This document shows, piece after piece, positions 3,326-52,965 of a stretch of 64,000 nt of DNA. Each line of letters begins with the position of its first letter. The stretch's first letter is position 1. The stretch comes from Candidatus Hydrogenedentota bacterium (GTDB lineage Bacteria; Hydrogenedentota; Hydrogenedentia; Hydrogenedentales; GCA-2746185). The stretch covers positions 17,118 through 81,117 of the forward strand of contig CANKTP010000001.1 in the NCBI GenBank assembly GCA_947486375.1. Direction: 5' to 3'. The notes beneath the pieces were generated by a model. That model was given only the letters and a program-made list of their open reading frames with translations. It searched no databases and had not been told where the DNA came from. A program made the translations under genes and the position numbers.

Positions 3326-3384
3326 TGTGGCGGCATGGCGGGGTAGCCGATGCCGGCAAGCCGGTACGCAGTAAGGAGCAGGAC

Positions 3385-23050: not shown

Positions 23051-23086
23051 GCCGGGGTCTTGTGCCGGGCGCCCGGACTCGTTAGC

Positions 23087-26000: not shown

Positions 26001-26152
26001 CCGTCCTGACGGCCCGGATCATCATCCGGATGATATCCAAGGTGCCGGAGAAGCGTTTCCCCTCGTATGACGAACTCATCGAGGCCCTGTCTCACGCACT
26101 CGAGTGGAACCGGGGCGGCGGCCAGGTAGACGGGAGCGAGGGAATTCATTGA
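23087..26152 (+). CDS. Multi-pass membrane sensor Ser/Thr protein kinase. It has an N-terminal PDZ-like segment, about 8 TM helices, a GAF-like domain and a Hanks-type kinase.
   Basis: The kinase motifs 'GKGGMSYVYLG', 'AVKV', 'HRDIKPRN', 'DFGLAR' and 'GTPDYMSPE' are present. A GAF-like block 'VLPMMIHDRMVGVVAFGDKAGFRNFS' is present. The start is uncertain: the track ORF begins with TTG at 23060, and ATGs lie at 23087, 23123 and 23333. Confidence 0.75.
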   Translation: MSGYEGSSGDALMETLGGSGSESGPESESPRQVSIPTVRPEKGGLRPDAPRTPSPAPQTRPREYDGFQFSSRFGRLRVPQGRMYPVSRWILLIAFVLASVYTVGRMIWSQTHTRLPNSFGLGLDSAHHAKIFNLDDGYRLVEVDGIPVGNPGTLSEVLDSSSAKETRLRFERQDRSRRIAREVVWVVSPELPEIDGPIHDSYLLGPGVDPGRYGMAGGERIVSVGGPWPGGPGWQRLFDVPDTGILRLTVQPAGRDLPPHDVIICHIDWSAQWTRFSVGSFLGFLGVFVFWRLPETRSSHGFTALTLMMGLSIFSGAVPHPYRLELENVARLLLHVLLPSAALLFVLRFSAWRLAVAKARFPMLLTWSLGACAIVANRRFFPDEADAGSLGSPIVRAMIGVYAALVLCALCGEPLARAFRARLRATDRQRGITMRFVACVALLLALVYAALSYWDVGRDIRIFLEFAVMACPAMLAYAVLRHGALEFRELIRDAAPYLALLVALPAAYAALVDGLLPLAGLWAGLEFGLASPVVMAALGLAAVLIRPRIRDHFQFRIQGVPANYDSLLQSFSEKAAIERMPQAFCDMAARELARTSHAPNVVIITRYPGDDSWNIAAATPGPRLERALECMDALVSLLQLSRREIRRDDLLEDVRYGEVRLRALAAMDELSASVVLPMMIHDRMVGVVAFGDKAGFRNFSTDDLRSLRRVTRHMAFTLWGMVDTLLARRNTRIVDLHPALPDVIGRWSISGFLGKGGMSYVYLGRHEGTEAAVKVANGAVQASVLLLERFHREALSMKRIDHPNIVHVLEVAHAKGEPYIALEYFSGGSLRDMVRTRGPLGEPEVLDYARQAVHGLNAALRHGVIHRDIKPRNLFLSSGGVLKVGDFGLARMEDISTITSVGDVLGTPDYMSPEVARGDRVDWRADQYALGITMYELLAGKRPFKSDRADALILQYLTGSVPDIRKQRPEVSVLTARIIIRMISKVPEKRFPSYDELIEALSHALEWNRGGGQVDGSEGIH

Positions 26153-26344
26153 GTGAGGGCTGTTTTGACGGTGCGGCGCAGGGTTTGAAAGCGCTGGGAA
26201 GGTGCGCATATGATTCGATTGCCGCGAATTGGGAAGCGAGAGGCTCGGAACAGCCGGAAGGCGCGAGTCGCCCGTGGCGATTTCGGGTTTAATTCCCATG
26301 GAGCATACGAATCCTTCTTGGAAATGATGGGGACACCGGTCTCA

Positions 26345-27133
26345 ATGCATTCGATAAATGGCGCGGCTTTGGCCCTGCTGGCGCTCGTGTGTTGTCCCTT
26401 CGCGCATGCGGGCGACGCCACCGAGTCGCCTTTCGTGGATTGGCAGTATCCGGCGTGGTTCGACGCGACGCAGGGGGTGACCGTGTCGTTTCGCGCGGGG
26501 ACCTTGGCCGGGGGGACTACGGAGACGGTTGTCGAGTACGTTTACTCGACCGGACCCAAGGGCCAGATAATCGCGGCGGCGGATCCTTCCGAGAACGGCC
26601 GTTTCGCCGCCGTAATACCGGGACTTCCGGAACCGGTGCTTGGGAATTTGGAAGTCACCGCGCGCGCCAAGGTGGACGGACGCGAGCTGCGCTCGCAGAC
26701 AGTCGCGATTGCGGCCGCGTACGTGAAAGAATTCGAGGTGACGGGGAATCCGCCGGTCGTGCTGCCCTACCCGCTCCTCGATGACGCTTATCTTGCGCGG
26801 TACATCCCCTGCTGCAATATCTTTGGCGGCGTCCTGGTAGGCAAGCGGATTCCGGTGTTGCCGACCGACACGCGAGACGGTCTCCCCGCGAGATTGGTGA
26901 GTGACTTCGCCGTACTCGAGCCCGACGGTCTCACCGAGTCGACTGCGGGGTTGCACATGCAATTTCGTTACGACCCCACCGCCGTCGAGGCGACGGGGGT
27001 GACTACCGTCGCATTGTATACGTGGGATATCCGGGCATGGCGTGAAGTCCGGAGTTACGAAATCGATACCCTCGCGGGGACGGTCGATTTCCATTGCCCG
27101 GCGGGCGGGATTTTTGTGCTCGGAGAAAAATAG
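26345..27133 (+). CDS. Hypothetical secreted protein
   Basis: The internal ATG at 26345 gives the signal peptide 'MHSINGAALALLALVCCPFAHAG'. No recognisable domain was found. Confidence 0.45.
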   Translation: MHSINGAALALLALVCCPFAHAGDATESPFVDWQYPAWFDATQGVTVSFRAGTLAGGTTETVVEYVYSTGPKGQIIAAADPSENGRFAAVIPGLPEPVLGNLEVTARAKVDGRELRSQTVAIAAAYVKEFEVTGNPPVVLPYPLLDDAYLARYIPCCNIFGGVLVGKRIPVLPTDTRDGLPARLVSDFAVLEPDGLTESTAGLHMQFRYDPTAVEATGVTTVALYTWDIRAWREVRSYEIDTLAGTVDFHCPAGGIFVLGEK

Positions 27134-27360: not shown

Positions 27361-27451
27361 CTTGTGGTAGCATGAAGCGTAGCGCATTTCTTGTGCGCTG
27401 CGGAATCTGTATCATCGAATGTCGTGATTGGATCAAGTGGGAGGGGAAGAC

Positions 27452-30400
27452 GTGCGGCATCAGCCGGAATCCGAAACAGGGGGCGGTGTTTCGGGTTTTC
27501 GTGTGCCGGTCTTGGCGTTCACCCTTGTCGCCCTGCTTGGGGCCTTTGCCGCGTCTGCGGCAGAATACGCAACCGAGTTTTTCGAAGGAACGGATGTCGA
27601 TCTAGGCGGGCAGTCGTTCACGTTCACCCCGGATGCGTCTGGGGGGAACTATGCGGTTTGCCGGTCATTGGCGGCTGCCTTTCCTGCCGCAGTGGACGCT
27701 GCGGCCCAGATTGTCCTGGGCGACGACGACTTTGAGGAAATCGTCCTTCTAGACGGGGCGACGGTTGGATATTTTGGCCAATCGTACACGTCCGTTTTCG
27801 TCGGCAGCAACGGGTACCTGACGTTCGGCTCGGGTGACTGGGGTTATTTCGAGTCGCTCGAGGCCCACTTCGACTTTCCGCCGCGGATTTCGGCCCTGTT
27901 CGACGACCTGAACCCCACGGCGGGGGGCTCGGTCTTTTTTGAACAAGCGGCCGACCGTATCGCGGTCACCTTTCAAGACGTGCCCGAATATAGCGTGGGC
28001 GGGGCGAATAGTTTTCAGGTCGAGCTTTTCTTCAGCGGGACCATACGGATCACGTATTTGGGTCTGTCGACGCTGGATGGGCTGGCGGGGCTTTCGGCGG
28101 GGCAGGGGTTGCCGGACGATTTTCAAGAGAGCGATTTCTCAGGCCTGCCCATGGGGTGCGACGACCTCGCGATCTCGCCGCAGGCGCCGTTCGACTCTTA
28201 CGGCCTGGTGGGCGGCCCGTTCGGGCCGTCCGCAAAGGTATACACGCTTTCCAATGCGGGGACCCAGCCGCTCGATTGGAACGCCGGGACTATCTCGCCC
28301 GTGACGTGGATGTCCGTGGTGCCCACAGGGGGGACCCTAAATCCGAGCGAGTCGGTCGTGATAGCGGTCGCGCTCACGGGCGAGGCCGACACCCTGCCGG
28401 CAAGCGCTGTCCCTTATTCGACCCTAATCGCGATTACGAACGCGACAAGCGCGCGAACGAGTTTCCTCGAGGCGGGGTTGGAGATTCGTAATCCTCCGGG
28501 AGATCTCCTTATCCGGGACAATGTAATCCCCAGATATGACCGCCGGTTGTCATTCCGTGACGTCGCCGTCGGTTCGACGGGCGGAGTACCCAATTCGGCG
28601 CTCGGCGTCATTTCGTTGAAGAACCTCGGGCCGGGCGCCCTTACCATCGCCCGGATCGGCCTGATGCGGTATTTCGAGAGTTTCAGCGACGGACTCGCTT
28701 CCGGATGGACGCCCGACGTGGGCGACAACTGGGCGGCGGCGAACAGCATGTTCCGAGCCAGGAACACCTCGACCGATCCCGATTTCATGACCGCCGTCGA
28801 GTCGACCGAATGGAACGAGGACATCGCGGTCGAGGTCACCACGGTCCAACAAGGAAACGATTCGCATCCGCACGGGATAGCCATCGCGGCGTCGGAAGGT
28901 TTCGACGCCGGCGAATTCGACGGGACGTTGCACGCCACCGGGAGCGGTTATGTGTTTCTTATCGCGTCGAATGGCGCCTTTAGCGCGTGGAAGTTCGAGA
29001 ACGGAAGCCAGATTCCGCTAAAGGCGTGGAGCTATTCGGCGGCCATCGAATCCGTGGCGAACGACTTGCGCGTGACGGCCGTTGCCGAACCCGATGGCGG
29101 CGTCCGGTTTCGATTCGCGATCAACGGGACGCAGGCGTGGAGCGGGGAGGACCTCGAGCCGCTTCCCAACGGCCGCATCGCCCTCATTGGATATAGCGAG
29201 GGCAATAGCACCATCTATCGCTTCGACAACATTCTCGTCAGTCCGCCGGGGGCGGAAGATGGGGTATCGGCCTCGACGCCTGCTTTCGGTTTGCCAGCGG
29301 ACAGTCTCCCCGACTTGCCGTTGACCATCGAGGCCCAAGCCGAGGCGTCTTTCGACGTCCTGTTTCAGCCCGACCACGAGGGTGACTTCAGGGACGTGCT
29401 GGTAATCCTGAGCGACGACGCCGACGACCCGGACGCCCAGGTCTCGCTCGAGGGCGCCGGCGAATCCGTGATCGAAATCGTCCACGATCCGCTGCCCGAC
29501 ACCGTCGATTTGGGTCCGTATAGCGCGATCGCCGCCATCACGGCCGGCGCCGGGCTTCTCGAGTCGGAATTGTGGCTCTATTATCGAGTAGTCAGCGGCG
29601 GACCATTCGCGCGCTTGCCGCTTTCGGTCTTGGAGAGCGGAAGTTATTTCGCCGAGATTCCCGCCCAAGCATTGGGAACACAGGTCGAGTACTACATTTC
29701 GGCGAGTGACGTCATGGGGCATGTCCTTACGGATCCGTTTAGGGTCCCCGATCGGCTCCATTCATTCATCGTTGGGCTACCGTCCTTGGTCGTGACTGTC
29801 CTGGCCCCGACCCTGGATGTGGAGTTGGCGTCCGGCGACAGCCAGACGATCCCGGCGTCAGTCCGTCTCGACAACGTGGGTTATGGCGACTTGATTTGGA
29901 GCGTAGGCGAGACGGTCCGTTCGCTTGCCGGGACGATTCAGTCCGCGTCGCTGCAACCGTTTGCCGTGCGGCCGGGGACCGAGGATATTGCGACCAAGGG
30001 GGTGCAACAACCGGCCTCCGGCAGTCATTCCGGAGTCGAGTCGATCGGCGGACCTGACGAAGGGGGATACACCTATACCGACAGTATCGAGCCCGGCGGA
30101 CCGTCGGTCGGCCAGTATTGGGTCGAGATAAGCGAGACCGGCACGAACCTGGGCATGACAGACGACGTATACGCCTTTCCGATCCCGCTCGATTTCATCT
30201 TCGATTTTTACGGGACGGCGTACACGGAAGTCGCCGTGGGGTCGAACGGGCTGATTTATTTCGAGGACACCTACCTCGGGTACGGCAATTCGTGCATTCC
30301 GGGAATGAACTACTACGGCGTGAATCGATTTATCGCGCTTTATTGGGATGACCTATATCCATCTGGAACCAACAACGTCTATTGGCAGGTGACGGGAGAC

Positions 30401-33400
30401 GCGCCGAACCGCAAATTTGTGGTGCAGTGGCACCACGTGGCGCATTTCGGCGCGGGCGGCGATCTCACCGCCCAGGTCCAGCTATTCGAAAGCGGCGGAA
30501 AGATAGTGCTGCTCTACCAGAACGCCGCGCCCACGTTTGGCCAAAACGCGACCGCCGGAATCCAAGGCGACCCGGAGACGGGCCTGCAGTACCGCTGCGA
30601 CGCCCCCAACCTCGAGGGAGGCTTGGCCGTCCTGTTCCAGCGAGGGGTGGGTTGGCTCGATGAGGTCCCGACCTCGGGAAGAATCCCGGCGGGCGGGTCT
30701 TCGACCATCGACCTTGTCTTCGACGCCGCGGGCTTGCCGCCGGGCTATGAGGAGGGGGCCCGGCTCGTCTTCTCGAGCAACGACGCCGACACGGCGGTAC
30801 CGGACTTCGCCGATGCCAGCTTGCGCGTGGCGCAAGCGGTCCGAATTGACCACGATCCCCTGGGAGACACGGGCGACACGGCCGGGCCATACCCCGTTTG
30901 CGCGAATATCACGGCGGTCGAAGGCGTGGATACAAGCGCGCTTTGGGCGTATTACCGCGTCAACGGCGACGGGGCATTCCTCCCCGCACCCATGTCTAAC
31001 ACCGGCGGCGATAATTTTTGCGGTTCAATTCCGGGCCAACCGATTGGCACGGAAGTCGAATACTATCTTGTCGCGCAGGACATGCTTGGCGGGGTCACGC
31101 GCCATCCGCCACAAGCGCCGTCCCTCGTGCATGCGTTCCACGTTGTCGATGCATCGGGCCAAATTGAGGTGATCGACCCCGTCGAGCCGTCGAACGACCT
31201 GTTCCTGCCATTCTCGCCGCCGGCGCTGGAAATTGGGACAAGCGCGGTCCGGACAGTGACCATTCGGAATGCCGGATTGGCGGCGTTGACCATCACGGGA
31301 ATTCTCGATAGTTTCCTGTACCGCGAAAGTTTCGACGACGGACTTGCCCAAGGTTGGGTCGAGGCGGTCGACTCCCAGTGGAACGCGGTCGACGGGGAGT
31401 ATCGCGCATTGACGGACCAACCCGGCGTCTGGATGCAATCAACTTATGCCGCCGCGACTTGGGAAGACCTTTCCGCGAGCGTCGTGATGCGCCGCGCGGG
31501 CGACACCGGGAACGTGTCGGCGTTGGCGGTGCGCACAAGCCCGGATTTCGACTTGGGATCGTACAGCGGATCGGCTTATGCGGTCGGCATCGACGGTTCC
31601 GGCAATTTTTGGGTCATCCGGTTTAGCCCCGGGGCCTATGCGTGGCTTCAATCTTGGACCTTCTCGCCGTATCTGAACACCGGCGAGTCGGCAAATGAGG
31701 TCACCCTCAGCGTCGAGGGCCCCGCGATTGGAGTCTATTTCAACGGGAACTTGGCGTGGATGGGATTCGACTTGGGTCTTGCAGGCCCCGGCGGCATCGC
31801 CCTCGATGGCTACAGCGGCTATGGCTTGGCGACCACCCATGTATACGACGACTTCGAAGTAGGGCAGCCGTTGCCCGCCCCGGCCGGACTGAACGCCGCG
31901 CAGCAATGGTACAACGGACATGCAAACGAGGCGGGATCGCCGGAGCTCGCCCCGCCAAACGATTTCGTTCCGCCCTATCCCGGCGGCGATCCGGGGGCGC
32001 TGGCGGATGCGACCGAAGTGCCGGAGACGCTCCCCGATGTATTCGAGTTGCAGGCGGTGCCCGAGCTGCCGTTGTTGCTGGCGCCGGACGCATCGGTCAC
32101 CTTTGACGTGGCCTTCAACCCGGTCGAGACCGGCGAGTTCAGCGGGGCCGTCGTGATCGAGAGTGACGATCCGGTGTCTCCCGAAGTAATCCTCGTCCTG
32201 ACCGGAATGGCATCGGAAGCCCTCGCGCTCGCTCATGTGCCGTTGCCGGACACGACGAACGCCCTGGGGCCATACCCAGTCGAGGCTTTGGTGACGTCGT
32301 TGTATGGGGTCGCCTCGGCGACCCTGCGGTGGAGTATCGATGCGGGACAGAATTTCACCGAAGTCGAGATGGTCGAGGGACAGGCTGGTGTCCACTCGGG
32401 CAACATTCCGGGACAGGACTCCGGCACGACGGTGTTGTATTCGATCGAGGTGGTGGACAGCCTCGATGCCTCCGTGGCCGACCCCGTCGGGGGCGGAACG
32501 CATCAGTTCCAAGTGACGGGCATACCAAACCTTACGCTTTCCCCCTCCAATCTAGAATTCGAGATTCCCCATGGCGAAACGGAAACCCGCGAAATTACAT
32601 TGCAAAACACCGGGAATTGGCCGGCCACTTGGTCGCTTCGCGAGTTGTTTGCGCCAAACCTAAAGGCACTCGGCGTGAACGCGCCGCAAGGCGGTCCGGG
32701 CGCGGCGCCATTGGCGGGCGCGAATCGCCCGAAGCCCCCGGGCGGAGGTCCGGCGGTGGATTGGCGTACGGCACACGTCCCCGGTCGATTGCTCGTGAAG
32801 TTCGCGCCAACCAAGTCCGGCCTGTCGGCCAAGGCGTCTGTCCATGCCTTTGCGGGCGGCCGCCCGATTCACTCGTTCCGCTCGATTCCGTTGGATGTGG
32901 TGCAAATTCCGCGCGGGGCGAACCTCGCGGCGATGGCGGCGGCATACCGCGCCCGCCCGGAAGTCGAGTACGCGGAACCCGATTACATCGTGCAGGCCGA
33001 CGTGTTCCCCGACGATCCCGCCTTCGCGCAACAATGGGCACTGCACAATACCGGGCAGACCGGCGGCCTCGAGGATGCCGACATCGATGCCCCCGAGGCG
33101 TGGGACACGCAGACCGGTAGCGCTACCGTGGTCGTGGCCGTCATCGATACCGGGATCGACTATACCCACCCGGATCTGGCCGCCAACATTTGGATCAACG
33201 AGGCCGAGGCCAACGGGACGCCCGGGCTCGACGACGATGGCAATGGCATCGCGGACGACCTCCACGGGGCGCGCTGGACCGATGGGACGGGTGCGCCGAC
33301 CAGCGGCGACCCGATGGACGGCAATGGCCACGGAACGCACGTGGCGGGGACTATCGGCGCGGTGGGCAACAACGGCACCGGTCCCGCCGGCGTGGCGTGG

Positions 33401-36400
33401 GACGTGCGCCTAATGGGCCTCAAGTTCCTGACTGACAGCGGCAGCGGTTCCATCTCGGACGCCGTTTCGGCCCTCGAGTACGCCATCGAGATGGGGGCCC
33501 ACGTGTCGAGCAATTCCTGGGGCGGGGGCGGGTTCAGCCAGGCGATGGCAGACATGATTGACGCGGCGCGCGCGGCGAACCAGCTTTTCATCGCCGCGGC
33601 GGGCAACGAGTCCCAGGACAACGACGCCAATCCGCACTACCCAAGCAGTTACGAACTGGACAATATCCTCTCGGTTGCGAGCAGCGACCAAGCCGACGCG
33701 ATGTCTTGGTTCAGCAATCATGGGGCGACCTCGGTCGACCTCGCCGCCCCGGGGTCGGATATATATTCGACTTGGCCGGGCGGCGGGTATAACACGATTA
33801 GCGGGACATCGATGGCCACGCCGCACGTCGCGGGCGTTGCCGCGCTCTTGTTGGGAAGCGCCCCAGACACGCCGTACTCCGACCTCAAGGCATGGCTGCT
33901 ATCGAGCGCCGATGTCCTGCCCGCATGGAGCGGGTTAACCTTGAGCGGCGCGCGCCTGAACGCCTCCGCGGCGCTCGGCAACTCGGGCAAGCCCTGGATC
34001 GACGAGGACCCAATTGAGGGAACGCTCGCCTCGGGCGAATCCAAGACGATCGCCGTGACCGTCGATACCACTCGACTCGAAAATGGCTTCTCCGATACGG
34101 CGATTTTGTCGATTGCCGGCGATCCCGACGGCGCGATCGAAGCCGGGGTGTCCCTGAATGTGGCCGGGTACGTTGCCTTTGACCATGATCCCTTGGTGGA
34201 CACAACCGCATCCGGCGACTACGAAGTGTGCGCCATGATTACGGCGCTGTCCGGTTCGATTGTCCGTACCGAGCTGTTCTGGAGCGTCGACGGGGGCGCA
34301 TTCACCGCGATTCCCATGACCGGCAGCGGCGGCGGCAATCTGGACTGCGCGGCGATACCGGCCCAAGCCGTCGGGTCGGATGTGTGCTATTACATTGAGG
34401 CCGAGGACGATCAAGGCCACGTTCAACGCAGGCCCTTCGAGGGCGCCGTCGCGCCGATTTGTTTCCAGGTCCAGGGAATTCCAAACTTGGAAGTCGCACT
34501 GCCCGAACCTGGCGGCCTGGATTTCTTCCTCAACCCGGGCGCCGCCGAGACCCGCGGTATCGTGATCACGAATTCGGGCACATGGCCCGTCGATTGGTCC
34601 CTGGGACTTCCGGGAGCGGGAGTGCTGACGACCACGATCGTCGATCTGCCGGCCATCTCCGCCATACCACGGGCGGGTATTTCGGGTGTTTTACCCGAGG
34701 GATGGGCCAGTTCGGGCCGTCCTTCGTCGCGGGAGGCCGTGCGCTCCTTGATACGCGCCGATGCCACGCCCGTCGATCTATTGATATTGTCGCCGAATAG
34801 CGTTCCGTCGACGCTGCAGGCCGGTCTGGAGGCATTCGAGGACATCGGCGCCCTGGACTATTTCGACGCCGCGATTTCCCCTCCCATCCCGGCCGATCTC
34901 GCGCCGTACGGCGTCGTGATCGTGGCGAATGGATTCTACTGGGCGGACGCCGAGGCGACAGGAAACGTGCTGGCGAGTTATGTCGATTCCGGGGGTAAAG
35001 TCATCGTCGCCGAGGCGGGATTCGACGGGTTCTGGGGATATGGCCTCCAGGGCCGGTTCGCGGACGAGTCCTATGGACCCTTCGTCGGCGGGCTCATTGA
35101 CCAATCCATTCAAAGGACCCTCGGCGCCCACGATGCCGATCATCCCATCATGGCCGGTGTCGAGTCCCTGGCCGATTCCGTCGTTACCCTGGTGGATTTG
35201 CAGCCCGGGGCCCAATGGGTCGCGGAGTGGGGGGATGGAGTTCCCCTCGTCGCGGTCATGGATTTTTCGTCCGTGGTCGGAATCAACATGTTCCCCTTCG
35301 ATTACGGCAACATCTCCGGAGACTATATATCCCTGTTCCATAATGCGGTCGTTTGGCTGGCGGATGGAGGGACCTCGAACGGGTGGATGTCGATGGGATC
35401 GGCATCGGGCAGGCTCGACCCCGGGGCATCGGTCGAGGTGCTCATCACGGCGGACGCGACCGGTCTGCACGACGGATTCCATGCGTGCCGGGGACTCGAA
35501 TTGTCGGGCGATCCGGATGGCGTACTGGATGTCACGGCGTGCCTGACCGTGTATAACGGCGCGCTTTTCCTCGGGCATTCGCCCCTGGAGGACACTTCGA
35601 ACGAGGGGCCGTATCCCGTCGAGACTACCATCGTTTCGGCCAGCGGCGTGTCGCGCGCGGACCTGTACTGGAGCACGGACGGGGGAGCGGTATTTGCCAC
35701 GACGCCGATGATCCCCATCTCCGGCGATTCGTACGGCGCATCGATCCCCGACCAGCCCGTGGGCACGATCATCGACTACTACCTCGAGGCCGAGGACGGC
35801 ATCGGCAATATCGCCGCGGAACCCGATACGGCGCCAGCCTTGTTGCACCGGTTTGAAGTCGTATCGACTCCCCCCGATATTTTCGTGACCGACTCGGTGG
35901 TCCCCGCGGACGATGGGATCGTGTCCTTCGATCCGCCGATCCCGATCGGGTCGAGCTCGGTCGAATCCATCACGGTGGAGAACCTGGGCGAACAGCCGCT
36001 CACCCTGAGCGGCGCGAGCGTGGCGTACAGGGTATCGGACAACAACAGCCCGCAAGGACCGGCCTTCGACTGGATCGAGATTGGCGTAAGCGGGACCAAC
36101 CTTGCCCTCATCGACGATAGTTATTCGTACCCGATCTCCCTGCCGTTTGGTTTCGAGTTCTACGGAAACGAATATACGGATATCGCCGTGGGATCGAACG
36201 GGGCGGTCTATTTCGAGGACAAATATTTTGCCTTTGCCAATTCCTGCATCCCCGGGAGCGGTGCCGTGGACGTCAGCCGGTTCATCGCCTTGTATTGGGA
36301 CGATCTCAGCCCGTCCGGCATCGACAACGTCTACTACCAGATTGTGGGCGAAGCCCCAAGCCGCAGGCTCGTGGTCGAATGGAGCAACGTGCCGCACGTT

Positions 36401-39400
36401 TGCTGCGGCGGGTCCCTGACCGCGCAAGTGCAACTCTTCGAGTCCACCGGGCACATACTCTACTTGTATTCGGAAACGGACCCCGGGGAAGGGGAGGGCG
36501 CCACCGCCGGTATTCAGGATTCCCCATCGCAAGGCCTTCAATATAGTTGCGACGATTCGGTGCTTGCGCCGGGATTGGCGGTGTTGTTTCAACCGGAACG
36601 GTATTTCGCCCTCGAGAACCTGCCCGACTTCCCGGCGGTGTTGGACCAGTTCGATTCGTTGTCGTTCGACGTCCGGTTTCAATCGCCCGACATTGGGAAT
36701 TTTCTCGGCGCGGTATCCATCCGGAGCGACGACCCCGACGCCCCCGAGGTTCAAGTCGATGTGGCCGGGTCGGCGGTCGATGTGATCGTGATCGGCCATA
36801 ATCCCTTGGGCGACACGAGCTTGGCCGGCCCGTATTCCGTGGAAGCGACCATCGCGGCCCCGCATGGCCTGGTGCGGGCAGACCTCTTGTGGAGCGTGGA
36901 CGGCGGAAATTCGTTCACATCCACGCTATTGTCCATTGTATCCGGCGATCTTTACGAGGCATCGGTTCCCGGTCAGCCCGTGGATACGGTGGTCGATTAC
37001 TACATCGAGGCGGAGGACTCCATGGGCAGCGTGCGCCGCGAGCCCGCCGATGCACCCTTCGCCACGCATCGGTTCTCGGTCGTGCCGCCGTCTGGCGACA
37101 TTGCCGTTTCGGACACCGCCCTGCCCGCCGACGACCGATGGATTCCGTACTCGCCGCCGATCGTCGGGCCCGGCGATAGCGTACTTCATACAATCACGGT
37201 CGATAACGCGGGCCTCGGAAACTTGGTTATCACCTCGATTCGCGCGGGCTTGTACTACGTCGAGAATTTTGAGGATGGCCTGCCGCAGGGTTGGACGGAA
37301 TCGGTCGACTCGCACTGGACGGTAACAGGGGGCGAATACCGCGCCCAAGCGGGATTTCCGGGCGTGAGCATGCAGTCGCGTTACGACGCCGCGTCCTGGG
37401 ACAATCTTTCGGCCCGGGCGCTGATTCGACGCACGGGAAATTCGTCCAACGTTTCGGTGTTGGCGGTCCGCACCAGCCCGGATTTCGACTACGCGACATT
37501 TGCCGGGTCCGCGTATGCCACGGGCATCAACGTGGACGGGACGTATTGGGTCATCCGGTTCAGCCCCGGCGGATTTTCATGGCTCCAATCGTGGACATTC
37601 TCCCCCTATCTCAATACCGGGGAAGCAACCAACGATGTGATGTTCAGCATCGACGGGGACGCCATCAACGTCTACTTCAACGGCAATTTGGCATGGAGCG
37701 GCTTCGACAGCGGCCACGGCGAGGCCGGCGGCATCGCGCTGGTGGGGTATAGCGGTTCCCTGTTCGAGATCGCCCATTTCTACGACGACGTCGAGGTCGG
37801 CCTTCCGGTACCGCCCGTTGAAGGCCTGTCGGCGGCCCAAGCGTGGTACAACAACCGTCCGCTCGAGGGGGGAACGCCGGCGGAGGCGCCGCCGGGTGCC
37901 GCCATCGCGGAATTTCCGGGCACGGCGGGAGGCCCGATTGTGGGAGATGCCCTGTCGGCGGAATCGGTGATGCCGGCATTCGTGACGGAAGGACTTCCGT
38001 CGTTGCCCGCCGTGCTGGGACCGGGCCAGTCATTCGCATTCGAGGTGCGATTCCAACCGGAGGCGCAAGGCGAGTTTACCGAGACCTTGTTCATCAACAG
38101 CGACGATCCCGATACCCCGGCATTGGAGGTGGGGTTGACCGGGACCGCCGGCGATCTTTTCGGAATCGAACACGGGCCGCTTGGCGACACGATCAACGAT
38201 GGGCCCTATGTGCTCGGGGCCACGATAACGGCCGCGAACGGAATCGCTCGCGCCGACACCATTTGGACCGCGGACGGCGGAGCCACGTTCTCGTCCGTCT
38301 CGATGGCGAATGTATCCGGCGATCATTACGTCGCGGCGATCCCGGGAGGACACCCCGACGGCACGGTCATCGGGTATTACATCGAAGTCGAGGATGCCGT
38401 GGGCAACATCGACACGGGACCCGGCGGGGCGCCGGTCGAGTTATACGAGTTCACGATCGAGGCGCCGCCAGGCGATCTCGCCGTGTTCGATTCGGTGGAT
38501 CCCGTGGACGACCGGCTATTGCCGTTCTCGCCTCCAACGGTGACGGTGGGCTCGAGCGTTGTCGAAACGATTACGGTCCTCAATGATGGGCTCGGGCCCC
38601 TGACCATTGGGAGCGTGCTCGGAGGATTATTCTACGCGGAGAATTTCAACGATGACTTGGCCCAAGGATGGGTCGAGACCGTTGACGCCCAATGGAATGT
38701 CTCGGGCGGCGCATACGCGGCCCGGGAAGATGTCCTGTCCACATGGATGCAGGCATCGTACGATACCGCGCCCTGGGAGAATTTTTCGGCAAGCGTCCGT
38801 ATGTCGCGGACGGCGACCGCGTCGAATACCTCGGCATTCGCGGTGCGTACCAGCCCCGATTTCGATATCCAGACATCGACCGGGTCCGCGTACGCCACCG
38901 GTATTCTCGGAGACGGTACTTTTTGGGTCATTCGGTTTAGCCCCGGCGGCTATGCATGGCTCCAATCGTGGACCTTCTCTGCGTATCTGAATACCGGGGA
39001 GGCGGTCAACGACGTCGCCATGAGCGTCAGCGGCGACGCGATCGCCGTCTATTTCAACGGTCATTTGGCCTGGAGCGGCTCCGATTCGGGAATTCCCGAT
39101 GCCGGGGGAATTGCGCTCATGGCCTACAACAACCCGGAAGGCATTTACCTCTACGACGACATTGAAGTGGGTCTGCCCATACCGTCCGCGGATGGATTGA
39201 GCGAGGCCCAAGCCTGGTACAACAGCCATCCCCTCGAGGGAGGATCGCCTTGGGAAGCGCCCGCGGAATCCATGGTCGCCGCGTTTCCCGGGGAGCTGGG
39301 CGACCCGATGGCTTCGGACAATCGCACATCTGGCGGCGAATTGGGATTGGAGTCCGTCGGGTATTCCGCGCTGTTCAATTCCGGGACCGATGGATTCACG

Positions 39401-42400
39401 GCAGACCCCGTCATGGGCGGTGGCTTATGGCACCAGACCGCGGGCTGCGAAGCGGCATCCGGGGACCACTCCACGCCCGGGGCGCTGTACTACGGAGTGG
39501 ACGGGGCATGTAACTACGACGCGGGCATTACCGCCGGGGCCGTGGTATCGCCGCCGATTGCGCTACCCGGGGACGCGACGGCAACCTTGACGTTCGCGTA
39601 TTTCCTGGAAACCGAGCGCGCCCCATCGTACTTCGACATGGCCTCGGTGGAGGTTTCGTCAGACGGGGGCGTCACCTATACGCTCGTGGCCCATAACGAT
39701 GCGAACGCAGGGGCCGCATTGATCGAGGAAACCGAGGGTGCGTGGCGGCAGTTGACCGTGAATCTGGCCGCGTTCGCCGGCGACGAAATTGTGATTCGCG
39801 TCGGTTTCGCGACGGTCGACAGCGGCGCGAATACCTATCGCGGATTCTATATTGACGACCTGTCGGTCGACCTGGATTCGACACAGCCATTTGAATTCGA
39901 AGGTCTCCCCGCATTGCCTGCAGTGCTGGCGCCGGGCGAATCTTTCGTGTTTGACGTCCGGTTCCAACCGATCGTCGATGGTCCATTCACCGGCGTCGTC
40001 CACATCGAGAGCGACGATCCGGAGACTCCGTCGGCCCGGGTGGATTTGTCGGGAATGGCCCAGTTCGCCATCGTCATCGATCACACGCCGCTGGGCGCCG
40101 CCGCTGCGGATGGGCCTTATGCGGTCGACGCCGCGATACTCAGCCAGGCCGCCCTCGTGCGTTCCGAGGTGTTTTGGAGCACGGACGGGGGGGCGAATTA
40201 TGCGTCCGTCCCGATGGCGATTGTCTCCGGCGATCTTTATCAGGCGCTAATTCCCGGGCAACCCGTGGGGACGCAGATCAAGTACTACATCGAGGTCGAG
40301 GACTCGCTGGGACTTGTGATTGCCCATCCGGCCGCGGCCCCCGGGGAGACGCACCAATTCGACATCGTGATTTATCCCGGCGACATCGAGGTCACGGATT
40401 CCGTCGAACCCCCGGACGACTTTTCGGCCCCATTCTCCGCCGTCAATATTGGCGCCAGTGCCACCGAGACAATGACGATCCGGAATAACGGCTTGGGGCC
40501 GCTCTCGATCGAGAATATTTCGGAGGCCGCGGCGCCCGGGATGAATTCGGCGCCGGACTCCGTCGGCGGCCCTGACGCCGGGGGCTACACGTTTATCGAC
40601 AATTACGAGCCCGGCGGACCCGCGTTCGACTGGATCGATGTGACCGGTACCGGCACGAACCTAAACCTTGTCGACGAGAGCTCGTCGCCACCGATCGCGA
40701 TTCCCTTCGCATTCGAGTTCTATGGGTCGGCGTACGACGCATTCGTAGTGGCCGACAATGGCGCGATCTATTTTGAGGGCGGTTACTTCGGTTATGCGAA
40801 TGCCTGCCTCCCCGACGGCGGCGTCTCGGGGATCGGCGCCTTTATTGCGCCATACTGGGCCGACCTATACCCGGGAGGGACGAACAACGTCTATTATCAG
40901 GTCGTCGGCGATGCCCCCAATCGCAGGCTCGTGATCGAGTGGTACAACGTCTATAGCGTGATCGGGGGCGAAACCGTCACCGCCCAAGTCCAATTGTTCG
41001 AGAACGGCGGCGACATCCTGTTTCTCTATGAAGACGCGTATCCCGTTTACGGCGGATACGCGGCGGCGGGTATCCAGGGAGATGCCGTCACCGGAATTTC
41101 ATACAGCTGCCAACAAGGCGATCTCTACCCGGGTTTGGCGGTATTGTTCGAGCCCGGCGATGCTCCCGGCGAAGGCGAAGGAGAGGGGCCATCCGCGTTT
41201 TTCATCGAGGGTCTTCCCGAATTTCCGGCGACCTTGGCCCCGGGCGACTCGCTCTCCTTCAGCCTGCGTTTCGAGCCGATTGTGGCCGGCGAGTACTCGG
41301 GGACCGTGTCCATCGAGAGTGACGATCCTTCCTCGCCGGTGATTGAGACGAACTTGACTGCTTCCGGCTTCGAGGCGTTTGGCGTCGCCCATGATCCCCT
41401 CGAGGGCGCATACGATTTTGCCCCATACGCGATTTGCCTGGAACTCAGCGCGTTCGAGGGGCTCAATCCCGCCGAACTTTGGTTGTATTACAGCATCGAT
41501 GGCGGGGTCACTTATGCGGGGCCGTTGCCCCTCATCCTGTCGGGCGAGGGCGTGTATTGCGCTGACATTCCCGCGCAACTTGCCGGCGCCACCGTGCATT
41601 ACTATGCCGTGCTCAGGGATGCATTGGGCCGCGTGGGGACATTTCCGCTTGGGAGTCCGTGGAGTTTCGAGGTTGCCGGCACGCCGGACTTCGAGGCGGA
41701 CCATCCGGACGAAATCGTATTCGTGCTAAATCCGGGGGCGTCGCAAACGCAAACGATTACCGTCGGCAATACCGGGCCCCAAGCCACGGCGGCGGGCGAG
41801 TGGCACATCGCGTCCGACGTGCTGCTGGCGTATGCAGGCGGACCCAAACCGGACGAGTTGCGTCGTCAACTCGAGGCCTTCCCCGAGGTCGCGCGGGTCG
41901 AGGCGTTTGACGCGTCCCGCTCGACACCCACCCTCGATGAACTCGAGGACTTCAACGTGGTGATCGTGCTGAGCGCGGATTCGTTCGCCGACCCGCTGGC
42001 GATGGGCGACGTCTTGGCGCTCTACGCCGCGGGCGGCGGCAAAATCATCCAGACCCTGGCGACCTTCGAGTCTTCCGCGGCGTGGGAGCTCGGGGGCGCG
42101 TTCGCGCGCGACTACAGCCCCTTCACGTCTGGCGAGTTTCAATTCCGGTACATGCAACTCGGCGACTACGATCTCGCCCACCCCATCATGGCCAGCATCG
42201 GATTCATCGAGGCCGAGTTTGCCGTCGGGGTTGGATTGGCGGAAGACGCCGAGCCGGTCGCCGATTGGGACGACGGGACCCCGGCGATCGCCACGCGAGG
42301 CGGAAACGTCGTCGCCATGAATGTCCTCCCGTTCGCGCAAGGCGAATGGCAGGCGGATGCGAACGTCCAGCAGCTGTTGCGCAATGCCATCGAATGGCTC

Positions 42401-45400
42401 AATCGCCAATGGCTCTCCGTGTTTCCCGTGTCCGGGAACTTGGAAATTGGCTCGGAAACCGTCGTGAGCCTGACGGCAAGCGCGGAAGGTTTTTCCGACG
42501 GCGACGAAACTACCACGACCCTTGTGATTGCCGGGGACCCCCATCCGGACGGTAACATCGAGCGGACCGTGAGACTGATCGTGGACGAGTATCTCTCGAT
42601 CGTGCATGAGCCGCTTGAGAACACGCCCGATGCCGCGGGCCCCTATCTGGTCGATGCGACGATCACCGCGGAAAACGGGGTGAACGAGTCGAAACTGAAG
42701 CTCTATTACAGCGTGAATCGCGGACCGATCGAGGAAGTCGCACTGCAGCCATTGGGGCTTGGCGCCTATCGCGGCGAAATTCCCGGCCAACCCTTCGGGA
42801 CCTTGATCGAGTACTACCTTTCGGCCCAGAACGCGATCGGGCAGTTACTGACCAATCCCATCGAGGCGCCAGACGACCGCCATGCGTTCAGGGTTTTCGA
42901 TCCCAGCTCCAACCTTTTCGCGGCGACATTCGAAACGGGCGGGGACGGCTTCGTCTTCGACAACGGCGCGGGCACCGGCGGCGGTTTGTGGCACCATACC
43001 ACGGCGTGTCAGGCAGTTGGGGCGGAAGGCGCCTTGTACTACGGTATCGACGCCTCCTGTTCCTATGACGCGGGCAACACCCAGGGCTTCGCGGTTTCCC
43101 CGCCCGTGGTCCTGCCGCCGCCGGGTCAATCCGCGACGCTGACATTCTCCTACTTCCTCGAGACCGAGGGGCTGCCCTCGAGTTACGACAGGGCGTCGGT
43201 CGAAGTCTCGACCGACGGGGGCGCCTCATGGGGGTTGGTCGCCCACAATTACGCCGGCGCGGCGGCCGGACTCGTGCTATTGCAGGATCCGACGGCCTCA
43301 TGGCGCCGCGCGACGGTCAATCTGTCCGCATTCGCCGGCTCGGAAATCATGCTTCGCCTCGGGTTCGCGACCGGCGATTCGATCGCGAACGGCCATAAGG
43401 GGTTCTATGTCGACGACCTGTCCATCGACCTCGCTCCGGACTGTGAAGTCCCGGCAAATCCGAGTCCGGCCGACGCAGAGGCGAATGTCGCGGTCAACGT
43501 CACGTTGGCATGGGACCAGGCCAAGGCGTTGGCCGAATATCTCGCCGCGTTGCGTGCGGGCGAGACCGGGGTCGAGTCCCTGGTTCGCGGCAGCGACGAG
43601 ACTCCGCTGTTCCCGCCGGTGCCGTCCGAGACGCCGCCCGTCGTTGTGCCCGACGCCCTGGCGAGCGTGGCGATCTTTCAGAACCTGGCGCCCTGGGGCA
43701 CGGCCTCGAACCAGGTCGTCTTGACGGCCAATGGAATCTCGCACCAAATCTTCGGCTCCGCCGACATGGGATACGTCGACTTGGCGGGCTTTGACAAAGT
43801 CATCGTGTCGTCTGTTCAGGATGCCCAGTTTTATGCGGCCCTGGCGGCCAATCGAGACTGGTTCGAGGACTATGTGATCTCGGGCGGATTGCTCGATCTG
43901 CACCTGGCGTCGTATACCTCGGCCCCGGCCGACGGCTTGGAGCTGCCGGGCGGCTTCGTGACACAAAGTTTGTTGTCCAGCTCGGTCTCGATTGCGGATC
44001 CGTTCCACCCCATCGTGACGGTGCCCCACGCAATTTCCCACGCGGAGCTTCAGGGTTGGAATTATTCGACGCACGGCATTTTCAGTTCGGCGCCGCTGGA
44101 CGCGGTGCCCATCGTGAACGAGACCGGCAGCGGGCTTCCGTGCGCCATGGAGTTGGCGCTCGGCGCCGGGCGTATCCTCGCCACGCTCCAGACGGTCGAA
44201 TGGATCGGTTCGTCGCCCAATTATTTCGAGAACATGACCCTCCACGAACTCGGCGGGTGCGCGCCCTCGTACGACGTATATTTCGGGACCGATCCCAATT
44301 CGCTGGCCCGGGTTTACACCGGCCTCGAGCAGCCCTACTGCGATTTTCCCTCGCTGAGTCCCGGCACCGTCTATTTCTGGCAGGTGGATGCGATCCGTTG
44401 CTGTGGCGCCACCCTTGGCCCCGTCTGGAGTTTCACGACCGGCACGGGACAGCTTTCGGTGGATGCGTTTGAAGCCGACGACTCGCCCCAGTCCGCGTCG
44501 CCGATCGCGCTCAACGGCGTGCCCCAGGAGCGGACCCTCGATCGACCGGGCGACGTCGATTGGGCGATTTTCTTCGCCGCGGCGGGACAGGCCATTCATG
44601 TGGACGCGACGGCCTCTGCCCCGGGCGCGCAGCTCTTTGTCCAACTGTATCGCTTGGAAGGCATTGCCCTTGTGGCCGAATCCGTCCCGCTCGGGAATCG
44701 CGACGTTTCCGCCTCGATCGAATGGACCGCCGACGCGAGCGGGGGATACCTTGTCCGCGTCGCCACGGCCACTCCCGCGGCCACCGGCGCCAGCGCTGCT
44801 TACCGCCTCGACGTTTGGGTCGAATCAATCATCCCCAGCACGCTCATCGTCCGCGCCGTCGACGAAGCGACAGGAGAGCCCATCGACGGCGTGGAAATCA
44901 TCATCGACGACCTCGCCAACGGTTACTTCACGAATGAGGATGGATTGTTTACCCTCCCAATGGAGCCGGGTCCCCACACGGTGTGCGCAAATGGCGGCGC
45001 CGTCGGTTTCACGGCCACCTGCGAGAGCCCGGCAAACGTCGACGTATCCGACTCGGAACAGGAAGTCGTCCAATTCGAGCTCGATCCCGACGCGAAACTC
45101 GAGGTGACGCCCGCCGGGCTTAACTTCGGGCGGGTATACCTCGGCTCGACGGTGGAGCGCCTCGTTACCGTCACAAACGTCGGCACGGGCACGCGCGTCA
45201 TCACCGGCGACGCTCTGTGGAACGCGCTCGGTCCCATACGAATCATGGACGGGTCTCACTATGTTTTAGACCCCGGTCAATCGAGCCAGGTTATCGTCGA
45301 ATTTGCCCCCCTGGCACCGGCGATCACCCAAGGGACGATGGAATTCACGACCGGTGTCCGCGGCAGCGAGACGATTGTGGTGTCCGGGACCGGCAGGGAA

Positions 45401-48400
45401 AATGCCGCGCCGGTGCTCGCGGGCATCGGCCCCAAGGCATTCACGGAGAACCAGGCGGGTAGTTTCACTGTCACGGCGAGCGATGTCGACGGCGACACGC
45501 TGACGTATGGCGTGTCCAATGCCCCGGAGGGCGCCGTCTTCGATCCCGGCACGCGCACGTTCTCCTGGACGCCGGACTTTGACAACGCCGCGGCGTACCC
45601 CGGCGTGACGTTCACCGTGACGGACGACCGCGCGCCTTTCAGAAGTGACACGGAGACGATTACGATCACGGTACAAAACACGAACCGGCCGCCCGTATTG
45701 AATTCCATCGGCGATCAAGCGTTCACCGAAGGGCAGTTCGACAGATTTACAGTGACCGCCACGGATCCGGACGGCGACGATTTGACCTACACCGCCATCG
45801 GATTGCCGTCCGGCGCGGCGCTCGACTCCGTCACCGGCGAATGCTCGTGGTCGCCCGGTTTCGAGTCCTTGCGAAGCTACTCGGGCGTCCAATTCATCGT
45901 GACGGACGACGGATTGCCAGTGCCCCTCCAGGCCTCCGGGCCGATAACGATCACGGTGGCGAATACGAACCGGGTGCCGTTTCTGGATTCAGTCGAAGAT
46001 CAGTCCGTGGCCGAAGGAGAAACGCTTTCCTTCACGGTGACTGCCAGCGATTTCGATGGTGGCACGCCGGTCTTAAGCGTCTCAAACCTACCCGGCGGCG
46101 CCACCTTCGATCCGGCCACCGGAAACTTCGCCTGGACCCCGGGGACAACCGATGCGGGCCCATACGAGGTGACCTTCATCGCCACCGACGGCGAGGGGCT
46201 GGCGGGCACCATGAGCGTTACCATTACGGTCACCAATGTGAACCGCGCACCCTCGTTGGATCCGATCGATAACCAATCGATTGCGGAGGGAGAACTCCTT
46301 ACATTCACCCTCTCGGCGACCGATCCCGACGACGATACGTTGACCTTCGGCGCGACGGATTTGCCCGGCGATGCCACGTTGAACGCGACGACCGGCGTGT
46401 TCGTATGGACACCGGGTTACGAGGATGCCAGCGAATATCCCGTCGAGTTTACAGTCTCGGATGGCGCTGCGCCGCCCGTTGCGGGGGCCGTCGTCATCAC
46501 GGTGTCGAATACGAATCGCGCCCCCGCGTTGTCGCCGATAGGAAGTCGGGCGGCGGGCGAGGGGGAAACCCTGACCATCGTTCTCTCGGCTTTCGATCCG
46601 GATGGCGACGCCATCGCGTATGCCGCGTTCGGCCTTCCCGAAGGCGCGCAATTCGATCCCGGGACAGCGACGTTCACTTGGACTCCGGGATTCGGCGAAT
46701 CGGGGAACTATGGCGTCGAGTTCGCGGTCACGGACAACGGTACGCCCGTTCTCAGCGCCTCCGAGGCGATTACGATTTCGGTGGGCGATGTGAATCGCCC
46801 GCCCGCGCTCGAGGCAGTCGGCGACCGGCAGGCCTTGGAAGGCGAACGCCTGGCATTAACGCTCACGTCCGTCGATCTCGACGCGGAAGACACGATGACC
46901 TACCTCATGACCAACGCGCCTACCGGGGCGGAACTCGATCCGGTGACCGGATCGTTTGGTTGGACGCCCGGATTCGACGACGCCGGGGTGTATACGGGAG
47001 TTGTGTTCACGGTAGCCGACGACGGAACGCCCATCGAATCGGACTTCGAGTCCATCACGATTACGATCATCAACTCGAACCGCGCGCCGGAGTTGGCCGA
47101 AGTCGCGGATCGAGAAGTGGCCGAGGGCGCGCCCCTCGAGATTGCGCTTGGCGCGAGCGATCCGGATTCGGGCGATGCGCGGACATTCGCCATGTCTAAT
47201 ACACCACCCGGCGCCTCACTCAATCCCATCACCGGCGTGTTTGCGTGGACGCCGGGGTTTGACGATGCCGGGAGGTACGACGTCGCGTTCACGGTGACCG
47301 ACGATGGAACGCCGGCGCCCCTGGATGACGCGGAACTCGTCACAATTACGGTCACCAATACAAACCGTCCGCCGACATTGGCCGCCATCGCGGACAGCGA
47401 GATTTTGGTTGGGCAGCGGCTCGAGATTGCGCTGGATGCCGTCGATCCGGATTCGACCGATCGATTGACGTTTGGCGTCACGGGTCTTCCGCCGGGCGAG
47501 GGTTCCATCGATCCAATCACGGGTGTGTTCGCATGGACACCCAGCGCCACGGGCACGTATGAGGCGATGTTCACCGTGACCGACGACGGCACGCCGGGGC
47601 CGCTCCAAGCATCCGAGACGGCCACGATCGCGGTGAGCGCCTTGCCGGTGGCGGCGTTCAGCGCGGACGTGCGCTTGGGAACCGCCCCGCTGACGGTCCA
47701 ATTCACGGATGAATCGGTATCCGGCAGCGCGGAGATTACTTCGTGGAATTGGAACTTCGGCGATGACACGTTCAGCGAGGAACAACACCCGGGACACGAT
47801 TACGCCTCTGACGGAGTGTACACCGTGTCGTTGACGGTGACGACCGCCACGGGTACCGACGCCGAGATCAAGACCGGCTATATCACCGTGACCGGCGACC
47901 CGGCGTCGCCAACGGCAGCATTCAGCGCGGACGTCCTCTTCGGTCCCGCCCCCCTCACGGTTCGATTCTCGGACGAGTCAGCCCCGGGCACCGCCCCAAT
48001 TACGGCGTGGGCGTGGAACTTCGGCGACAGCGGGCCGATCGGCGCCGATCCGGATCCAGAACATGTATTTGCGTTGGAGGGCGTGTATTCCGTGTCGTTG
48101 ACGGTGACGACCGCAGGGGGCATCGATCTCGAGATCAAGACCGCCTACATCACGGTGGGCAACGATCCGGTGCCGCCCGTGGCCGACTTCAACGCGGATG
48201 CGCGGTTCGGCCCGGCCCCCCTGTCGGTGCAGTTTGTGGACGAGTCAAGACCGGGCAGCACGGGCATAACCGAATGGTTGTGGAACTTCGGCGATGCCGC
48301 CACCAGCACGCAACCGAACCCAAGGCATGTCTATGAGTCCGACGGCGTGTACACGGTATCGTTGACCGTGACGACGGGCGTGGACGACAACACCGCGACG

Positions 48401-52871: not shown

Positions 52872-52965
52872 GATGGCCAACCGCGATACCGGGTTTGGAA
52901 ACATGCGTGATAGGATTATCAACGGGGTCTTCCGGGGCATGCCGGAAGCACGGAAAGGACCAGCG

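Follow-up and report, generated by a model that had tools for sequence, protein, structure and literature searches.

We examined a 64,000-nucleotide stretch of genome from a Candidatus Hydrogenedentota bacterium (GenBank assembly GCA_947486375.1, contig CANKTP010000001.1, positions 17,118 to 81,117 of the forward strand), called the window below, and within it the giant open reading frame (ORF) whose features are collected in Table 1. Its product contains a subtilase (peptidase family S8) with a prodomain of its own directly upstream. We found that this pair, the pro-S8 cassette, is a guest inserted in a loop of an immunoglobulin (Ig)-like domain of the HYDIN/BACON type. Homologous proteins are cited by P number.

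Table 1. Features of the giant gene and its product, in window coordinates; a slash marks the bond predicted to be cut
Feature	Positions	Strand	Residues (aa)	Remarks
Giant ORF	27428..50452	+	7,674	length in residues or codons
Predicted Sec signal peptide	27452..27559	+		MRHQPESETGGGVSGFRVPVLAFTLVALLGAFAASA/AEY; read from the translation
N-terminal half of host Ig-like domain	32519..32638	+	1698-1737	'IgC' type, four predicted strands; map by self-profiles (self-HMM)
Leash between host half-Ig and prodomain	32639..32782	+	1738-1785	48 aa, Pro/Gly-rich, flexible
Subtilisin-type prodomain	32783..32998	+	1786-1857	Fervidolysin_NPro-like, PF22148
Predicted autoprocessing site	32996..33001	+	A1857/D1858	YIVQA/DVFPDDP; by position
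S8 catalytic domain	32999..33982	+	1858-2185	Pfam PF00082
C-terminal half of host Ig-like domain	33995..34177	+	2190-2250	'IgD' type, five predicted strands
HDPL spacer domain after S8 unit	34178..34465	+	2251-2346	PPAD-type Ig-like; one of 10 copies (self-HMM)
ThuA-like unit after S8 unit	34475..35854	+	2350-2809	ThuA-like head in split Ig, then HDPL
GGCGS motif	50300-50317	+		upstream of the C-terminal hydrophobic segment
C-terminal hydrophobic segment and Arg cluster	50357..50407	+		LELSLTIAAFLYASRRR, ends RRR; putative membrane anchor or sorting signal, from the translation

A subtilase nested in an Ig-like domain

The initial annotation of this DNA had placed an S8 subtilase with Asp, His and Ser motifs in mid-ORF, at 32790-33980 (aa 1788-2185); the whole pro-S8 cassette is aa 1786-2185. 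All three motifs are present and in frame: VIDTGID (aa 1905-1911, nt 33140-33160), HGTHVAG (aa 1968-1974, nt 33329-33349) and GTSMATPHVAG (aa 2126-2136, nt 33803-33835), with the catalytic codons at 33146-33148 (Asp1907), 33329-33331 (His1968) and 33809-33811 (Ser2128). The oxyanion residue is Asn2060 (nt 33605-33607), within AAAGNES (aa 2056-2062). A profile search bore the assignment out, Peptidase_S8 (PF00082) matching with E 2.6e-58 and 198 bits against a cut-off of 21.8, over profile positions 3-273 of 288. In an alignment of 75 sequences no variation is seen at the Asp, His and Ser, and hardly any at the oxyanion Asn. Among solved structures the catalytic domain of the deseasin MCP-01 (3vv3) comes nearest, with phmmer E 4e-106 and 56% identity, and an AlphaFold2 (AF2) model superposes on it with a root-mean-square deviation (rmsd) of 1.2 A and a template-modeling (TM) score of 0.95; a DDDGNG calcium-loop insertion is common to both. 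The NCBIfam model germ_prot_CspBA also matched weakly (E 1e-13), far under its cut-off. The order Asp-His-Ser, the motifs, the oxyanion Asn, the profile score and the subtilisin fold are those of family S8; the embedded domain is real and intact, its motif and profile matches are not due to chance, and judging from its sequence the protease is apparently active.

The prodomain directly upstream matches PF22148 with E 8e-12 and 45.8 bits (cut-off 21). It had been called an I9-type propeptide; a subtilisin-type prodomain does lie directly N-terminal of the protease, but the family label did not survive, Pfam Inhibitor_I9 (PF05922) giving no match in this region at E<=0.01. The predicted secondary structure has the beta-alpha-beta-beta-alpha-beta pattern of subtilisin prodomains (E90-99, H107-116, E119-123, E129-133, H140-148 and E153-160 in model numbering), with predicted local distance difference test (pLDDT) values of 77-96. 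The arrangement of an autoprocessing subtilase, also proposed in the initial annotation, is upheld by the position of the prodomain before an intact S8 domain and by the junction motif EP[ND]Y..xA/...P[ND]DP, which is conserved across homologues. Because residue 1 of 3vv3_A aligns to D1858, autoprocessing is predicted at the A1857/D1858 bond. In Csp subtilases, too, the site of cleavage has a fixed position with respect to the mature domain (PMC3567191).

The leash that ties the prodomain to the first half of the host domain has pLDDT <50 in both AlphaFold models, and its length and sequence vary among 21 homologous units with the exception of a VDW-x-x-P-H motif. This motif ends the leash just before the prodomain (window 32750-32782, aa 1775-1785) and is kept in most nested C/D-type units as well as in the stand-alone P0001; it may serve as a contact for docking or as a signal for processing.

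On the other side of the guest, the second half of the host domain begins 4 residues past the catalytic domain. When the guest was excised in silico, joining aa 1694-1742 to 2186-2250, the two halves gave one continuous match to PF22544 (HYDIN_VesB_CFA65-like_Ig; profile positions 1-86 of 100, 30.6 bits against a cut-off of 25.5) and also matched BACON_2 (PF19190) over positions 2-73. Guest excision restored the host-domain match in four of seven other units tested. Flanking halves were type-matched (A with B, or C with D) in 91 cases and mismatched in 2 among about 300 proteins, and this matching holds across S8, ThuA-like, LamG-like and NIDO-like guests. Both Ig halves of the S8 unit have pLDDT 92-95 in the model built with 21 nested homologous units, the N-terminal half reaching 92-94 and the C-terminal half 92-95 over model residues 501-520, against 46-77 when the alignment was mostly without nested homologues. 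Boundaries between units are 3-19 residues long, and long Pro/Gly-rich linkers (48-65 aa) occur solely within a unit, where they flank the guest on one side. From the pLDDT values, the joint Pfam match and the type-matching we strongly infer that the two Ig halves would be in physical contact.

The giant protein, its relatives and its neighbors

Beside the cassette, a Pfam scan of the giant protein found only scattered Ig-like, MAM, He_PIG, cadherin-like and PKD domains. A unit map was made with iterated self-profiles, that is, hidden Markov models (HMMs) of the protein's own segments, and resolves the first 5,300 residues into about ten units sharing one plan: an Ig-like domain split around a head into its N-terminal and C-terminal halves, followed by an HDPL domain of 95 residues. 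NIDO-like heads are present in four copies (one of them, the first, at aa 82-251, falls outside the unit scheme), LamG/DUF1080-like heads in four, ThuA-like heads in two to three, MAM heads in two and prodomain plus S8 in one. The C-terminal third consists of He_PIG/cadherin-like and PKD repeats.

The nine further HDPL copies fall within aa 684-5154, with the consensus H-x-P-L...GPY...YY.x.A.D. When 14 copies were combined in a profile, it matched the Ig-like domain of the Porphyromonas gingivalis peptidylarginine deiminase, PPAD (4ytg residues 319-412, E 6e-11). No Pfam model matches the HDPL domain, which may merit a family model of its own.

The ThuA-like head is class-I glutamine-amidotransferase-like, and for seven of its ten members there is a weak match to Pfam ThuA, the best with E 4.9e-5. 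Such heads are found at window 34475-35854 and 41675-42889, and also in P0121-P0131, P0166-P0168 and P0174; they are always within a split Ig and repeatedly adjoin S8 units in unrelated architectures. P0132 combines an N-terminal S8 domain with NIDO-like, nested ThuA-like and malectin domains. An S8 unit followed by a ThuA-like unit, the order seen in the giant protein, recurs in P0122-P0126, P0166, P0167 and P0168, and the recurrent adjacency suggests a functional pairing.

Near the end of the giant protein (window 49100-50000, aa ~7,230-7,520) an alpha-helical repeat of about 140 aa occurs twice, both times ending in an acidic D-x-D-G-D-G-x-x-N-x-D-E-Y-D motif (DLDGDGVSNADEYD, DFDGDGFTNLDEYD). 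The motifs resemble the calcium-binding loops of thrombospondin type 3 or dockerin repeats; the Pfam scan reported no match here.

The public gene call (ENA ERZ27280197, contig k141_1955775) gives the giant gene 7,666 aa from a GTG start at 27452. A Shine-Dalgarno-like run, GGGAGGGG, precedes this GTG, which is the likely start. The N-terminus of that product reads as a Sec signal peptide; when the translation was inspected by eye, a basic n-region, a hydrophobic core and an A-S-A cleavage motif could be recognized. Tails similar to its C-terminus are present in P0001, P0016 and P0122-P0126. Among NCBIfam models, the sole and weak match of the tail was to the tail region of myxosortase-dependent M36 peptidases (E 0.005, 14 bits). 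An assignment of the tail as MYXO-CTERM or PEP-CTERM (exosortase-type) was rejected, no curated model having matched. The GC content of the window is 62%; recent foreign insertion of the cassette was also considered and rejected, its GC fraction being 0.64-0.66 against 0.61-0.64 elsewhere in the gene.

How unusual the cassette appears depends on the search. A word-indexed search with the S8 region only returned, as its best 120 matches, ordinary secreted subtilases of 420-750 aa, and left the impression of a unique insertion, which searches with the whole unit and with the downstream region overturned. The downstream-region search turned up proteins from Candidatus Hydrogenedentes, about 1,450 aa long and annotated 'S8 family serine peptidase' (P0122-P0126; HOC68342.1 and OQC06541.1 are in the same 90% cluster), whose catalytic domains are the closest found (64-68% identity). 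These closest relatives were missing from the best 120 of the word-indexed S8 search, and neither protein search returned the giant protein itself though its contig is in the collection; the tops of such lists can mislead.

The exhaustive whole-unit search covered 1.84 billion cluster representatives and yielded 152,549 matches, the best 150 of which are mostly proteins of 1,000-6,577 aa. We examined 145 of these best representatives, and 98 carry at least one internal pro-S8 cassette, 61 of the 145 holding two or three; the ranking favors long multi-copy proteins, so that these counts are not natural frequencies. Among the 108 internal cassettes in this set, the prodomain is directly upstream in 94 and the D-H-N-S residues are kept in 106. 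These sequence comparisons do show the internal pro-S8 architecture to be common and under selection for catalysis. A minimal version of the nested unit is P0005, a secreted protein of 738 aa. At the other extreme P0156-P0160, single proteins of 2.5 to 4.2 thousand residues, have two or three full prodomain-S8 cassettes, all triads being intact; the first is often located at the N-terminus without nesting, and those after it are nested between half-Ig segments. A scan of GTDB genomes with the unit gave S8-level matches only, at 49% identity or less, and no orthologue of the giant protein.

The neighbors of the giant gene are housekeeping genes. Downstream are murC, ftsQ, ftsZ, a PilT-like ATPase gene and dapA; upstream are genes for a GAF-domain Ser/Thr kinase and a gamma-glutamyltranspeptidase. 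The FtsZ of the window is 100% identical to P0301, which is encoded on ENA contig k141_1955775 (91 kb), and those of its relatives that carry a name are all Candidatus Hydrogenedentes. No sortase, exosortase or dedicated secretion gene was found among the window neighbors. The kinase (1,030 aa, window 23060-26152) is on the same strand as the giant gene, and the two are separated by an ORF of 307 aa (26210-27133) with no family or Pfam match. This ORF was considered as a conserved partner gene and rejected, being unrelated to the ORFs upstream of P0125 and P0126, whose neighborhoods have nothing in common with the window. At window 52092-54222 a single base separates ftsQ (POTRA_1/FtsQ), which has murC directly upstream, from the ftsZ that comes next; no ftsA intervenes, and this end of the division and cell wall (dcw) cluster appears to be without ftsA at its usual place. 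Two further ORFs on the giant gene's strand, at 29-3325 (1,098 aa) and 3070-9432 (2,120 aa), contain many domains of the BACON_2, HYDIN-type Ig and He_PIG families. As listed they overlap by 255 nt, and the second probably starts later; they are likely further modular surface proteins, without a protease match.

A proposed maturation and its alternatives

The reading we favor, and hold to be somewhat probable, is that the S8 cassette would be one displayed head module of a Sec-exported, C-terminally anchored giant surface protein, acting in trans. The starting point is a catalytic domain with all its catalytic residues and an MCP-01-like fold, nested between type-matched half-Ig segments with a rigid 4-residue joint on its C-terminal side and a flexible leash before the prodomain. 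As in homologous pro-subtilases, the prodomain would chaperone folding and then be cut off in cis at about A1857/D1858. This single cut would leave an N-terminal chain of 190 kDa and an anchored C-terminal chain of 605 kDa, and the nesting suggests that the two would stay joined non-covalently, because each gives strands to the same beta-sandwich. The leashed prodomain would then be degraded and the protease would act on external proteins at the cell surface, working beside binding-type and ThuA-like heads with its own carrier presumably not dismantled.

Several observations tell against parts of this scheme. When the two AF2 models were compared by Foldseek with pro-forms (3whi, 3wiu, 8pol, 4tr2, 1r6v and 3afg, which include pro-subtilisin E (3whi), pro-SUB1, fervidolysin (1r6v) and ProN-Tk-SP (3afg)), the rmsd was about 24 A (predicted TM score, pTM, 0.64-0.72). 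The TM score in these alignments comes from the catalytic domain alone, and the canonical docked pose of the prodomain was not recovered, so that docking of the prodomain as chaperone and inhibitor is assumed from homology. Nesting is general to all heads of the family and hence is no evidence of adaptation to S8 cleavage. As for the anchor, the hydrophobic stretch of the tail is short, and the last 54 residues matched none of the NCBIfam sorting-signal models at E<=10. A protease this near its carrier could also still trim it.

The initial annotation had suggested that the giant product is a polyprotein cleaving itself into separately functioning fragments or, alternatively, that the protease is a tethered effector. 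The second suggestion fits the architecture better. Viral polyproteins, and MARTX toxins by way of their cysteine protease domain, are precursors processed at multiple sites; that the S8 domain would similarly cut the giant precursor at several sites to free functional fragments seems to us decidedly unlikely. The protease is indeed complete and embedded, one cut at its own junction is expected in any case, and the many relatives with two or three pro-S8 cassettes would take several cuts; the same idea has been proposed for giant Omnitrophota proteins with S8 and C39 domains, whose autocatalytic cleavage into smaller products is an untested hypothesis (bioRxiv 10.1101/2023.11.21.568195). Nesting weakens the case, because the expected cut can nick the chain without necessarily separating its halves, which the host domain should hold together. 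The short boundaries between units provide no exposed linkers as accessible sites in the giant protein (a cleavage motif, the specificity being unknown, was not searched for), and the long linkers are confined to the interior of nested units. One protease would have to serve about ten units, and the small relatives that share the nested cassette (P0005 and the ~1,450-aa family) have little or nothing to liberate. In CspBA the junction between the two proteins is cut by a different protease, even in a catalytic Ser mutant (PMC3567191).

Doubtful, yet less so, is a latent or regulated protease, in which the leashed prodomain would stay bound as inhibitor until released by another protease, calcium or mechanical load, or in which the S8 domain would serve mainly for binding. 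The leash does tie the prodomain to the host domain, the conserved VDWxxPH at its boundary with the prodomain hints at a specific contact, and retention of the prodomain after autoprocessing is documented for CspB and PCSK9 (PMC3567191). However, the catalytic domain is nearest to degradative, broad-specificity enzymes (MCP-01 and thermitase), and such subtilases normally degrade their own prodomain (PMC3567191); the AF2 models show no stably docked prodomain, and near-universal conservation of the triad and the oxyanion residue argues for turnover. That same conservation, at 106 of 108 internal cassettes, would hardly be expected in the absence of catalysis and, together with the conserved junction motif, makes it very improbable that the prodomain is never cleaved and the product persists as one covalent chain with an inactive or weakly active S8 domain, even though AF2 does not place the prodomain tail in the canonical docked position and gives the junction between prodomain and catalytic domain pLDDT <50. 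To our knowledge every characterized pro-subtilase with an intact triad autoprocesses. The Csp proteins are among them (PMC3567191). Finally, a metagenome assembly of a protein so repetitive at the domain level could have produced a chimera of repeated modules, with the S8 domain taken from a separate smaller gene, but we give such an artifact of assembly or gene calling hardly any credence. The frame is uninterrupted over 23 kb; GC is uniform, as is GC at third codon positions (GC3, 0.77 for the giant gene), with codon-position GC like that of adjoining genes. Since internal DNA repeats are only 62-81% identical (81% being the maximum) and composition is uniform, repeat collapse or a chimera is unlikely. 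The public gene call gives the same product of 7,666 aa, the adjacent FtsZ is present on three contigs, the S8 unit is flanked by half-domains that make sense only together, and the internal arrangement is common to dozens of independent proteins.

A bolder reading, formed by analogy with GAIN and SEA domains and in our estimate unlikely, is that obligatory autoprocessing of the pro-S8 cassette within its Ig domain would be a maturation switch, turning one chain of 7.7 thousand residues into two held only by strand complementation in the split Ig, with the prodomain on its 48-residue leash as a re-bindable inhibitor. Were this so, force or a second protease could release the N-terminal adhesive arm of 190 kDa or unmask the protease, and relatives with two or three cassettes would become three- or four-chain assemblies; it would be an undescribed way to build and regulate very large bacterial surface proteins.

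The literature leaves open whether giant bacterial proteins function as one chain each or undergo cleavage once made (PMC11573180; bioRxiv 10.1101/2023.11.21.568195), and this locus offers a concrete, testable case, with one cut predicted at a defined bond and products predicted to stay together. Far from being a curiosity, internal pro-S8 cassettes are a common feature of large surface proteins from the environment; they are usually in a split Ig, with NIDO-like, LamG-like, MAM and ThuA-like heads for neighbors. Hydrogenedentes and other uncultured phyla would thus share a widespread class of modular "multi-tool" surface proteins, which probably take part in capturing and degrading particulate protein. 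A leashed prodomain that would be unable to leave its host domain is also a natural experiment on the release of a chaperone and inhibitor.

Comparison with known systems

The enzyme family is an ordinary one, and surface-displayed multidomain subtilases are already well known. Our literature search for S8 domains nested in Ig domains found nothing comparable beyond CspB, whose arrangement is the opposite (a jellyroll inside the protease); a pro-S8 cassette as the guest of a domain-in-domain Ig insertion, inside giant modular proteins that obligatory autoprocessing would nick but not sever, appears to be undescribed until now. The giant Omnitrophota proteins differ in that their S8 domain is described as N-terminal, with many transmembrane segments and other enzyme sets, and Ig nesting is not described (bioRxiv 10.1101/2023.11.21.568195). 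The clostridial CspBA and CspB proteins are similar in having subtilase domains with their own prodomains fused in one polypeptide and in their position-dependent autoprocessing; they differ as intracellular spore (germination) proteins with a jellyroll within the protease, no Ig nesting, and a fusion junction that is cut by another protease (PMC3567191).

Deseasin MCP-01 of Pseudoalteromonas sp. SM9913 (3vv3), which is collagenolytic, resembles the giant protein in being secreted and in combining a prodomain, a catalytic domain and beta-sandwich accessory domains. In MCP-01 the prodomain comes after the signal peptide, and the accessory domains, as named by its depositors and the literature, are C-terminal, whereas the cassette of the giant protein lies 1,785 residues in, inside an Ig-like domain. 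Closer in plan are P0122-P0126, which have a pro-S8 between half-Ig segments, then a nested ThuA-like unit and a C-terminal hydrophobic/Arg tail. These proteins have only two nested units, their host Ig is of the IgA/IgB subtype, and they are five times shorter and without HDPL spacers; neither NIDO-like nor LamG-like heads were detected in them.

Lactococcal PrtP and the streptococcal C5a peptidase ScpA are large, C-terminally anchored surface proteins that carry S8 on a beta-sandwich stalk. Compared by description, they have the pro-S8 at the N-terminus and a PA domain as an insert within the protease, whereas here the protease is itself the inserted guest. The GAIN domains of adhesion GPCRs and the SEA domains of mucins undergo a single intramolecular cut, after which the two chains stay non-covalently joined in one domain. 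There the self-cleavage is chemical and occurs within the fold, whereas the cut proposed here would be enzymatic and in the guest, with the host Ig as clamp; the likeness is one of functional analogy only, without homology.

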